Shown here in pieces: positions 32,278 through 35,315 of a DNA stretch of 64,000 nt (positions are counted from its first letter, which is position 1; every line of letters begins with the position of its first letter). The notes beneath the pieces were generated by a model, which did not search any database, was not told the origin of the DNA, and was given only the letters and a program-made list of their open reading frames with translations. Source of the DNA: Cenarchaeum sp. (GTDB lineage Archaea; Thermoproteota; Nitrososphaeria; Nitrososphaerales; Nitrosopumilaceae). A program made the translations under genes and the position numbers. The DNA lies in NCBI GenBank assembly GCA_965242695.1, contig CBDESU010000002.1, forward strand, positions 832,001 through 896,000, written 5' to 3'.

Positions 32278-32949
32278 ATGGACAGGGAAGAGTACGACCG
32301 GCAGGAGGACGAGGAGCCGTTTGATGCGGTGCGCAGGATGGCGGTTCCGCCCCCCGCCGGCGCCGAACTGGACCGCCTGATCCTGGAGACCAAGGTGCAG
32401 GCGCTGGCGCGCGTTGCAAAGGAATACGCAAGCAATCTTGGCGGCGGTCATGGCGAGTTCCTGAGAGCCGTAAAGTGCGACGTTCCGGATATGCCGTCTC
32501 GTACTGCAAGCATCGGTATGGCGGCAGCGTAAGCTCGCTCCTGAAGTGGCACTCTGCCTGGCCCTCCACGTTGCGGAGCGGGGGGAGTGGCTCGGCAGGG
32601 CCATACAGCTCATGCTCGAGAGCGCCGACAGCGCCGGCGACGAGCGCAGGGCGTCGTCGTACCTCGTGATTGCGCACAACCTGAACCGGTGGCACGGCTG
32701 CCGGATGGACGATGCGGTAGCCGGCTCCGCCATGTGGCTTGCAAGAGGGCGCAAGGACAGCCGGTTTGCCCACATCTATGCACGCGTTGCAGCATGCGCC
32801 GAAAAAAACCCCAAGACGAGGGACGAGCTGCGGGATGCGATGATCCGCCGCGCGGCCCGCTCCGATCTCCCTGACGCGCGGCGTTTTCTCGAGGCGGCAA
32901 TTCAGGCGGCCGCGGACAGGGGACCTGCCAGGCTTGCATACATGTACAC
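32278..32949 (+). pseudogene. Probable N-terminal part of a DUF4209/HEPN-like gene, frameshifted and cut by IS110
   Basis: Two helical ORF fragments (32278-32532, 32546-32953) that end exactly at the IS110 left end. Confidence 0.45.
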
Positions 32950-32977
32950 ATGAAAAACCCCGGGGCGGGGGCGGGGC

Positions 32978-33095
32978 TGTGGACCGACCCCTTCAACCGC
33001 GTGGGCATTGTTCCCTTTTGCATGAATGGGGCGAATCGAGCTGCTGTGTAGCTGGGCATTGTTCCCTGATAGGTGCTTGCAGCCTCCGGTCCAAC
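32978..33095 (+). ncRNA. Candidate IS110 bridge/seek RNA
   Basis: Outer stem GGACCG/CGGTCC encloses two stem-internal-loop-hairpin arms, each capped by GGGCATTGTTCCC; loop strands match the target site and the circle junction. Confidence 0.6.
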
Positions 33096-33137
33096 ACCGC
33101 CCACCAGGGCATCATCCGCAAGGAGGTGAATTGAAGG

Positions 33138-34241
33138 ATGGTATATATTGGAATCGACATATCAAAGCGTAAGTGTGACGTGTGTACAGTCGACGCAAAG
33201 GGCAAGGTGCTCGAGAGGGGCCAGTACTCCAACACGCCGGAAGGCGCCAAGAAGTTCGCGGCCTCGCTCAAGCGCAAGTATGGACGTCGGCGCCCCGTCG
33301 CCGCGTGCGAGACGACCGCCAACATGTGGCAGGTCTCGTACGCCGCGTTCGAGGATGCTGGCATCGACATAAAGCTTGCCGACACGTACAAGATGGTGCT
33401 CATATCGCGGACCGCGAAGAAGACCGACAAGGTCGACGCCGAAAAGATAGCGCAGGTGCTGCGCATGGGGATGCTCCCCGAGTGCCACGTGCCCGATGCG
33501 GGCACAAGGGCACAGCGCCAGCTCATCCGGCGAAGGGTTTCGCTGGGCCAGGACAGGACACGCGCGACCAACCGGCTGCGCGCGCTCCTCGACATGCACG
33601 GCAGAACGGTCGACGCCTCGCGCCTGTACCTGAAGAAGGCCATGGCGCAGCTGAGCGGCATGATACTCGGCAACGGCGAGGACAGCGTGGACACGGCCGT
33701 GCTGCGGTCGCATGTGAAGCAGATCGCCTCGCTCAACGACGGCATCGAGGATGTGGAGCGAAGGATCGACGTAGAGGCGGCGGCCGACGAGGACGCCGAG
33801 CTGCTCATGAGCATCACTGGATTCGACGCATACTCTGCCATAGCTCTATCGGCGGAGATCGACGACATTTCCCGCTTCGAGACTCCCAAGCAGTTCATCT
33901 CGTGGGCCGGCCTGTGCCCGATAGTTCGGCAGTCCGGCGACGAGGTGCACCACGGCGGGGTCAAGAAGATCGGCAGGAACCGCACCGTAAACTGGCTCCT
34001 CACCGAGGCGGCCAACACCGCGGTGCAGCACGATCCCCGCATGAAGGACGTGTACAAGAAAGCGAGGGCGAGGCATGCCGACAAGCATGCCCCCGCCATA
34101 GTCGTCGTCGCCAACAAGATGGCGACTATCGCGTTCTATGTGCTAGTGAGCCGCAAGCCGTACACGCACAGCAACACGCCGAGGTACGATCGCAAGCTCA
34201 AGAGGTTGCGCAGTCGAGCCAAGAAGAACGACGATGCGTAG
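33138..34241 (+). CDS. IS110-family DEDD transposase/recombinase
   Basis: YIGIDISK, ACETT, KKTDKVDA, GLCP..RQSG (catalytic Ser), A.K motif; AGGAGGTG RBS. Confidence 0.96.
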   Translation: MVYIGIDISKRKCDVCTVDAKGKVLERGQYSNTPEGAKKFAASLKRKYGRRRPVAACETTANMWQVSYAAFEDAGIDIKLADTYKMVLISRTAKKTDKVDAEKIAQVLRMGMLPECHVPDAGTRAQRQLIRRRVSLGQDRTRATNRLRALLDMHGRTVDASRLYLKKAMAQLSGMILGNGEDSVDTAVLRSHVKQIASLNDGIEDVERRIDVEAAADEDAELLMSITGFDAYSAIALSAEIDDISRFETPKQFISWAGLCPIVRQSGDEVHHGGVKKIGRNRTVNWLLTEAANTAVQHDPRMKDVYKKARARHADKHAPAIVVVANKMATIAFYVLVSRKPYTHSNTPRYDRKLKRLRSRAKKNDDA

Positions 34242-34427
34242 TGGAGGAGGATGTTTGCCGCCGCCGCTAACGCGGCGGCGTGACCCTCCGCGAAGCCGTT
34301 GGAAGCGCAGGGTGGGGGAGCCTGCGTACGCGGGCGCGCTAGACATATAGCAACCCACGCCTGCGGCGCGGCTGGACCGGATGTCTTCTCCCAACTTCGC
34401 CCCGCCCCCGCCCCGGTTTTTTCATAG

Positions 34428-35315
34428 GTGCGGCTGTGCGAGCGGCGCGCCGACGGCGAGCGGCGCGCGCCGCAGAGGGCGCACGGCTACAACGAGGCGC
34501 TGCGCCACGCCGACGGGCGCGGGGACCGCGAGAGGCTGGCCGGCAAGGTGGTAGAGGCCGCGCGGCTGGCCGAGTTTGCCGATTACGCGGATGCCTGCGA
34601 GGAGCCTGCGCTGGAAATACCGGGCCAAACCGGCCCCGAGCGGGCCAGGGGCCTTGCCGCCGCGCTGTCCTGCATTGTGCTGCCCGCTCGGATGATCCGG
34701 CGGGACGGCGGCGGGGATGCCGCCGGCGCCGGCGGCCGCGCCGAAGTGGCCGGGCGCTGGGCCCATTCTCTGGCCGCGTACGTCTCCGCAGTCGCGCGCG
34801 CCTGCGAGGACGGCGGGCGGATCTCGGCGGACGACCACGTGAGCTGCATAATGTCCTCCGGGCTTGGCATCGGCCGTGCAGAGGAGGCCCTGATCAGGGC
34901 GGGGATTGAGAGGCACTACGACGGGGACTATGCGTCTTCGATCCACATACTGATGCCGCAGGTAGAGTCGACGCTCAGGGCAGTGCTCGGGCAAAAGGGC
35001 GCCGATGCTGCCGGCGGGGACGGGCCGCCTGCTCGGACTGGCGCGCTACGCTCCATGATCGAGGGGGGCGAGGGCATCCTGGGGGGCGACCTTGCCGCGT
35101 TTCTCCATGTGTGGCTTGCGGGTGCGGACTCTGCCAACCTGCGCGACAGGGTCTGCCACTGCCTGTACGGGGACGGCGGGGAGGCAGGGGAGGAATGCGC
35201 GCTGCCGCGCGAACTCAACCACGGCAACTCCCTGGCCCTGATACTTGCCATCGAGCTGCTCTCTGGCGCATGCTCGAAAGACCGTCCCGCCCGACGGGGG
35301 CCGGCGACGCGGTGA
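34428..35315 (+). pseudogene. DUF4209 (HEPN-like) C-terminal fragment
   Basis: GDYASSIHILMPQVESTLR and NLRDRVCH (Rx4H) motifs; begins at the IS110 right end. Confidence 0.65.

Follow-up and report, generated by a model that had tools for sequence, protein, structure and literature searches.

Bridge and seek RNAs are a recently found means of aiming DNA recombination by two programmable loops. To our knowledge, almost all of the described cases are bacterial. This work addresses an archaeal element, an insertion sequence of the IS110 family (hereafter E1) carried by a stretch of 64,000 nucleotides from Cenarchaeum sp. (assembly GCA_965242695.1, contig CBDESU010000002.1, positions 832,001 to 896,000 of the forward strand). 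This whole stretch is called the window, and positions given below without a contig name are positions of the window. An initial annotation, made from the letters alone, had described E1 as an archaeal IS110 element with an AT core, whose 5' non-coding end would encode a bridge RNA with one loop for its target and one for its donor.

The closest described systems belong to the IS110 and IS1111 groups. In IS621, according to the part of Durrant et al. 2024 (PMC11208160) available to us, the left non-coding end, which precedes the recombinase gene, encodes an RNA with two internal loops, of which the target loop comes before the donor loop. These loops read both strands around a 2-base core, as also stated in the available part of Hiraizumi et al. 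2024 (PMC11208158), and insertion occurs without target duplication. The IS1111 elements (ISEc11, ISPa11, ISKpn4) are characterized, in the accessible portion of Siddiquee et al. 2024 (PMC11187229), by subterminal inverted repeats, a GL-P----SG motif in the transposase, site-specific insertion without duplication and, in nearly all members, an RNA encoded downstream of the transposase gene. The same portion indicates that, in the seekRNAs of the IS1111 type, the match to the top strand lies 5' of the match to the bottom strand, which is the reverse of the IS110 type. It also mentions rare relatives of IS1111 that have an upstream non-coding region (ISMtsp17) or long ones on both sides (ISHvo10/ISAcp5).

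E1 is IS1111-like within the IS110 family and interrupts a protein-coding gene at a TG dinucleotide. We consider it very probable, at roughly 85%, that this element has a TG core and a plus-strand bridge/seek RNA of about 115 nt, the first arm of which would provide the target loop and the second arm the donor loop. The evidence comes from an assembled empty site, from the comparison of homologous archaeal elements and from the covariation of loop strands with the DNA that they would read.

Ends, core and transposase of E1

The ends of E1 were located with a 2793-nt metagenome contig (run X8), which matches positions 32803-32942 and then positions 34429-34600 and thus skips 1486 bases. At this joint, the ends are TG..GG, the shorter side has 140 letters and 2 letters fit either side. 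Furthermore, the gene interrupted by E1 has one half on each side, both on the plus strand: the upstream half (32546-32944) aligns with residues 108-236 (E 1e-33) and the downstream half (34431-35312) with residues 237-530 (E 9e-40) of the same 554-amino-acid open frame from the same genus. The two alignments meet without any gap at residues 236/237. From the contig joint and this gapless alignment, it follows that the body of the element extends from 32945 to 34428 on the plus strand (1484 bp, or 1486 bp with one copy of the core) and that the core, i.e. the crossover dinucleotide, is TG, the left copy of which lies at 32943-32944 and the right copy, also given by the empty-site contig, at 34429-34430. 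Compared with the previous proposal, the element thus extends outwards by 5 more bases on the left and by 3 more on the right. The earlier statement that removal of the element with retention of one AT restores the target is contradicted by the real empty site, where 32942 is joined to 34429 and TG is shared. An orthologous empty site, sought with the right flank in 20 related genomes, was not found, the search yielding just short low-complexity matches.

The inverted ends that had been noticed are real, the arms 32954-32977 and 34399-34422 being complementary at 92% over 24 nt. They are subterminal, since the left repeat (32950-32977) starts 5 bases inside the left end and the right one (34399-34425) stops 3 bases inside the right end. 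The first six bases of the element, TACACA (32945-32950), are the reverse complement of a loop strand of the RNA described below, and the right non-coding end (34242-34428) holds the right repeat followed by a terminal AGG. With 193 and 187 bases, the two non-coding ends are both long.

Between them, the plus-strand gene 33138-34241 encodes a transposase of 367 amino acids, the assignment of which to the IS110 family, made in the initial annotation, is borne out by Pfam (PF01548, E 4.8e-27; PF02371, E 1.9e-23) and by the NCBIfam model NF033542 'IS110 family RNA-guided transposase' (236.8 bits for a cut-off of 140). The protein combines an N-terminal RuvC-like DEDD domain and a C-terminal Transposase_20 domain, the combination that defines this family, and carries the GL-P----SG motif as GLCPIVRQSG. 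Its closest relatives of solved structure in the PDB are the transposases of ISCro4 (E 2.5e-16) and IS621 (E 1.1e-11).

The RNA module and its two loops

The module lies upstream of the transposase gene, as the initial annotation had stated: a covariance model (R1) matches the plus strand from 32973 to 33098 (111.1 bits, E 1.9e-30). This model was built from 21 homologous archaeal elements, hand-picked copies of standard length, for which RNAalifold, used without any guidance, gives an outer stem of 8 bp, a stem for each of the two arms and two apical hairpins. Compensatory changes affect 19 of the 27 pairs, whereas controls in which the alignment was slid give at most 8 compensated pairs. Paired cells amount to 96.6%, against 83.8% in shuffled alignments, none of the 500 shuffles being as high on all five measures. 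As G:U cells (21) largely outnumber A:C cells (4), the RNA is assigned to the strand of the transposase, i.e. the plus strand. The 5' strand of the outer stem (32980-32986) pairs with 33087-33093, and compensatory changes are found in 8/8 pairs of this helix. Arm 1 (32988-33031) has a CCCC/GGGG stem, two loop strands (a and b) and an apical hairpin (33003-33015), while arm 2 (33038-33086) has a GAGCTGC/GCAGC.TC stem, two loop strands (c and d) and an apical hairpin (33054-33066).

The letters cited by the initial annotation are all found at their places: GCTGC (33040-33044) and GCAGC (33079-33083), TGTGTA (33045-33050), ATAGGTGC (33069-33076), TTTTGCATGAA (33016-33026), the inner hairpin GGGCATTGTTCCC, which occurs twice, and GGACCG/CGGTCC. 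The single-copy minimum-energy folds of 32950-33137 and 32978-33096 differ from its structure, but its five helices are those obtained with the 21 elements. Its general proposal, that the 5' non-coding end encodes a bispecific RNA of the bridge/seek type with two loops on a common stem, is upheld by the same comparison, which makes such an RNA probable.

The covariance model also detects the module in archaeal elements outside the alignment (25-106 bits), at 4 places in the genome of the window and in 6 of the 151 sampled genomes of the phylum. The loci of 32 bacterial relatives gave one marginal match only (13.5 bits, E 0.18). A search of 32700-34700 against Rfam detected no family, the best matches being at chance level and far under the gathering scores. 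Folded alone, the right non-coding end has a z of -2.07, and RNAalifold found no consensus structure for it across 16 elements.

For the comparison of loop strands with insertion sites, 51 loci (L041-L090 and L100) were examined. Four were excluded because they are cut by contig ends (L051, L053, L058, L060), five because they lack the anchor motifs (L063, L067, L069, L070, L079), seven because they lack the left-end motif of the main clade (L062, L064, L065, L066, L068, L081, L082), five because no right end is recognisable within 480 bases (L049, L055, L086, L087, L088) and three because they are duplicate places. This left 27 insertions with both flanks, which display 21 distinct a/b guide pairs. 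Non-cognate pairs set guides against flanks from other genomes, and permutation tests used the first listed insertion for each distinct guide set (21 and 19 sets).

Strand a, on the 5' side of arm 1 (32992-33002, plus strand), complements the top strand over the core and right flank, and strand b, on the 3' side (33016-33026, plus strand), has the same sense as the left flank followed by TG and AA. Strand b matches 102 of 147 positions in the 7 bases left of the left TG (mean 4.86/7, against 1.78 for 408 non-cognate pairs), while the reverse complement of strand a matches 100 of 168 positions in the 8 bases right of the right TG (mean 4.76/8, against 1.99). For either strand, none of 20,000 permutations gave a flank sum as high. 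Strand b ends in an invariant TGAA; opposite the TG, strand a reads CA, CG or TA, so that some cases need wobble pairs. Strands a and b also vary in step with their own flanks among copies from the same genome; for example, strand b differs between L071 and L072 along with the left flank, and strand a of L078 fits 8/8 of the flank positions tested. In E1 itself, strand a matches 5/8 bases of 34431-34438. In other metagenome contexts, E1 is preceded by GCA-TG (2 contigs) and followed by TG-CGG (2 contigs), as predicted by strands b and a, respectively. Since the strands of arm 1 covary with the flanks of each copy, this comparison of sequences points to arm 1 as the target-binding loop, which would come first and be followed by the donor loop. 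The initial annotation had placed the donor arm first. Its donor arm (32988-33031) is the one that covaries with the flanks, and the order is target then donor, as in IS621. The covariation of loops with insertion sites that it proposed as a check does exist, in arm 1.

Two insertions draw attention by their surroundings. L090 (G227:C1:1052399-1055048) is flanked by two microsatellites, with (CTG)n(TTG)n to its left and (GTGTGGTT)n to its right, the units of which match its strand b at 7/7 and its strand a at 6/8 positions. In L043 (G148:C1), the left TG is preceded by a tandem duplication of 15 bases (CCTAATAGTCTGTTG), which may have been left by a previous insertion or excision there.

Arm 2 reads other letters. 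Strand c, on its 5' side (33045-33053, plus strand), includes TGTGTA and is complementary to the top strand of the left end of the element; strand d, on its 3' side (33067-33078, plus strand), includes ATAGGTG and corresponds, in the same orientation, to the terminal 5 bases of the element plus the TG core. Strand d matches the right end and core at 7/7 positions in 25 of the 27 insertions, and its variants GGTG, GATG and ATGGATG are each mirrored by the right end, with no exception among intact copies; non-cognate pairs already reach 6.23/7. Strand c matches the left end at 5.16/7 positions on average (non-cognate, 4.52) and at 6/7 positions in E1, where the left end is TACACA. Across the family, the left end reads (A/T)A(C/T)(A/G)CA and covaries with strand c, which follows the variants ATACA, ATGCA and ACGCA. 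In the distant-clade locus L065, the left TG is followed by AAGGCA, and the reverse complement of strand c (AGCCTTACT) contains AAGGC, as judged by eye. Permutations never gave sums as high for strand c or for strand d (0/20,000 for either). The TG is invariant in strands b and d across the 21 elements.

The 6 bases at the start of the element (TACACA), together with its last 5 bases and the core (ATAGG plus TG), are matched by arm 2, which is thus identified from these sequences as the probable donor-binding loop, reading the element's own ends. TACACA and ATAGG lie inside the element, and the letters beside the inverted repeats belong to it. The arm that had been taken as the target arm (33038-33086) thus matches the ends of the element.

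As in the IS621 and IS1111 systems described so far, the RNA would be produced, would bind the transposase and would act on an excised circle. The outer stem would enclose the two arms, each made of a stem, an internal loop and an apical hairpin, and the two near-identical hairpin arms would bind transposase subunits. Arm 1 would pair with both strands of the target around TG, strand b with the bottom strand and strand a with the top strand, while arm 2 would pair around TG with the joined ends of the circle, for which the predicted junction is the right end ...CATAGG, then TG, then the left end TACACATG.... Strand exchange at TG would insert the element without target duplication. The reverse reaction would restore the target, and the empty-site contig indicates that this may occur in nature.

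In E1, the apical hairpins 33003-33015 and 33054-33066 are identical. In most relatives, the two hairpins of an element are near-identical, while those of different elements differ, a pattern which suggests two equivalent protein-binding modules kept alike. On the opposite side of the element, a box GCG(T/A)TAGCTATAAA is found about 95 bases from the right end in 11 of 16 aligned elements, the region concerned being 34338-34381 in the window. It looks like an archaeal TATA box facing the element end and might drive transcription across the circle junction. After this box, a copy of the 5' half of the outer stem, with GGACCG at 34372-34377, is complementary to 33085-33101.

Weighing the alternatives

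Several observations weigh against the TG-core, two-loop reading. The empty site is documented by a single assembled metagenome contig, which is 94-98% identical to the flanks. Strand b of E1 matches its own left flank at 3/7 positions only, the weakest value of the 27. Poor matches of strand a, in register, were also observed for L050 (0/8) and L044 (2/8). In one metagenome context of E1 (X6), the right junction is not simply TG-CGG. Strand c fails to match the left end in L047 (3/7) and, by eye, in L049 and L086-L088, and covers the core only partly, usually its G alone. Kinship among the elements means that the permutation figures overstate the independence of the copies. Finally, taken as single copies, 32950-33137 and 32978-33096 fold no more stably than shuffled sequences (z 0.31 and -0.47).

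Some local readings were tried and rejected. A 4-base slip in the left flank of E1 improves the match of strand b, but breaks the reading frame supported by the homologue. Two further ideas gave poor matches by eye, one taking the 12 bases left of the inner AT for a captured flank and the other having strand a read either the right end or the outer left flank; the model with a TG core was adopted instead.

The reading of the initial annotation, in which the core is AT and the ends are at 32950 and 34425, with GTACAC-AT-AGGTGC as the target read by arm 2 and the AT-type circle junction read by arm 1, does rest on letter matches that exist in E1: TGTGTA with TACACA, ATAGGTGC with itself and TTTTGCATGAA with the junction at 10 of 11 positions. 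This last match is restricted to E1, since it falls to 3-7/11 in the other 26 insertions (mean of the 27, 5.3). Moreover, the empty-site contig joins 32942 to 34429 and not 32949 to 34424, and an AT join would add 4 codons, one of them TAG, where the 554-amino-acid homologue is contiguous. The motifs TGAA(C/T)(A/G)C, left of the inner AT, and ATAG(G/A)TG, right of the other AT, are common to elements from many genomes. If they were the target, unoccupied sites would be expected; no exact TGAAYRC-AT-AGRTG was found in 5 genomes, and sites with one mismatch (25) are not in excess of a backwards control (32). The refutation that the initial annotation had set, other copies lying at sites unrelated to TACACATAGGTGC, holds in the sense that these letters travel with the element. 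It is also arm 1 that covaries with the flanks. The AT reading appears extremely unlikely.

A target-only RNA has more in its favour. Arm 1 would then be a short seekRNA, the inverted repeats would be recognised by the transposase, and arm 2 would be a protein-binding scaffold with an inherited likeness to the ends. Short seekRNAs predominate, according to the available portion of Siddiquee et al. 2024 (PMC11187229). Both the ends and the strands c and d are so conserved that independent covariation events are few, as reflected by the non-cognate score of strand d, and strand c does not match the left end in the lineages of L047 and, by eye, of L049/L086-L088. Nevertheless, strand d follows all the variants of the right end without exception among intact copies, strand c follows those of the left end, including by eye the distant-clade AAGGC, and no permutation equals the scores of either strand, which makes this explanation improbable. 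A role in cis only, in which the structure would be the 5' leader of the transposase mRNA and would govern its translation or stability without any guide function, is highly unlikely. The structure does lie directly upstream of a strong ribosome-binding site and start codon, but such a leader would not give loop strands that covary with flanking DNA or element ends. A similarly slight chance is given to helices that would form in DNA, for instance as hairpins in transposase-bound single-stranded ends. Stems made of Watson-Crick pairs only would form in DNA too, but the plus-strand asymmetry of G:U and A:C cells argues for RNA, and the solved relatives of the family use RNA, according to the accessible part of PMC11208158. 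We thus retain the TG-core element with a two-loop guide RNA.

Relatives, host gene and known systems

Relatives of the transposase were found in 62 of 401 sampled genomes of the class (one unpublished genome being counted in and otherwise unused), and their upstream regions hold the same RNA module. Proteins about 53% identical carry the source labels Thaumarchaeota/Nitrososphaer... archaea. The genome of the window also contains an rRNA that fits the archaeal small-subunit model, a model which gives signals in bacterial controls as well. A protein scan of GTDB species genomes detected relatives only 22-32% identical, mostly bacterial, which did not help to define the ends.

The genome of the window contains only one full copy of E1 and three relatives. 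One of these, E2, encodes a transposase 41% identical to that of E1 and is present as a full copy (G000:C1:708225-709700) and as a second copy (C1:1346140-1347254, minus strand) which breaks off inside the transposase gene. E2 has its own version of the RNA (110.9 and 104.6 bits), and both of its left flanks read CATGCT before TG, with matches to its strand b of 7/7 and 6/7. A deletion derivative of about 174 bp (L002; G000:C1:1013284-1013457, minus strand; 30.8 bits with the covariance model), bordered by TG on both sides, consists of the left end, arm 1 and half of arm 2 fused to the last ~65 bases of the right end. The fourth IS110-family gene (G000:C1:683252-684208, minus strand) is 28% identical and has no R1 match nearby, so its RNA, if any, would be of another type. 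In addition, a lone stretch of 29 bases (G000:C2:296828-296856), identical to the right end of E1 plus TG and one flank base and with no element upstream, may be a remnant. In another genome, bases 1-50 of L053 (G305:C122) show the right end of a family element adjoining the interior of a homologous transposase gene, which indicates that one family element inserted into another.

The gene interrupted by E1 is a member of a family of open frames, about 550-730 amino acids long, that have no Pfam match, as was also found when both of its halves were searched, and that occur in 4 of 201 sampled genomes of the taxonomic family. The genome of the window carries a paralogue (G000:C2:447213-447770).

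E1 shares with IS621 the position of the RNA upstream of the gene in the left non-coding end, the two internal loops in the order target then donor, the reading of both strands around a 2-base core and insertion without target duplication. It differs from IS621, as the latter is described in the available text, by its core (TG instead of CT) and by its swapped loop sides, the 5' side complementing the top strand of core and right side and the 3' side having the sense of left side and core. Seen from the DNA, the gene cassette is reversed between the ends, and the apical hairpins are near-identical within the archaeal element. The absent or very short inverted repeats (2-3 bp in the available descriptions) that characterize the IS110 group, i.e. 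IS621-like elements, are not those of E1, which has repeats of 24-28 bp in addition to swapped loop sides.

With the IS1111 elements, E1 shares the subterminal repeats, the GL-P----SG motif, the site-specific insertion without duplication and the order of the guides, a before b and c before d, so that the match to the top strand lies 5' of that to the bottom strand. The reversal of guide polarity relative to IS621, noticed in the initial annotation, is therefore a correct observation, but not a new one, as it is reported for IS1111 in the accessible portion of PMC11187229. E1 differs from IS1111 by its upstream RNA, its two long non-coding ends, its archaeal host and its donor strands, which lie in a simple internal loop whereas many IS1111 elements have a multi-loop structure (available part of Durrant et al., PMC11208160). 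Guide order and subterminal repeats are thus IS1111-like and already published, and the upstream position of the RNA is the unusual feature. As for layout alone, which is the basis of this comparison, E1 resembles ISMtsp17 and ISHvo10/ISAcp5, as far as these are described in the available text, in being of the IS1111 type with a long non-coding region not confined to the downstream side. ISHvo10 is, to judge by its name, archaeal.

As the hallmarks of both groups are mixed, the archaeal clade is best viewed as a variant and not as a new kind of element. That the archaeal elements constitute a third bridge-RNA layout, combining IS1111 guide order and long repeats with a compact 5' RNA of about 115 nt, twin hairpins and two IS621-like loops, is put forward tentatively and seems rather doubtful to us. 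No description of the RNA of this clade was found in the literature searched, where the supplements of Durrant et al., Siddiquee et al. and preprint 10.64898/2026.10.21.760802 may list such elements. To judge by its accessible part, the latter, based on intergenic clustering, mines bridge RNAs at scale and may include the RNA of this clade.

A match of a loop to its flank in one copy alone can point to the wrong loop, and here the ends, the core and both loops were defined from natural copies and an empty site, which makes the clade a well-supported archaeal family. Globally, this family brings together traits by which published work distinguishes the IS110 group from the IS1111 group and therefore offers a useful test of the links among RNA layout, guide polarity and subterminal repeats. 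It is also a candidate compact recombinase system and, if the third layout were confirmed, would represent a small, natively archaeal, programmable one.

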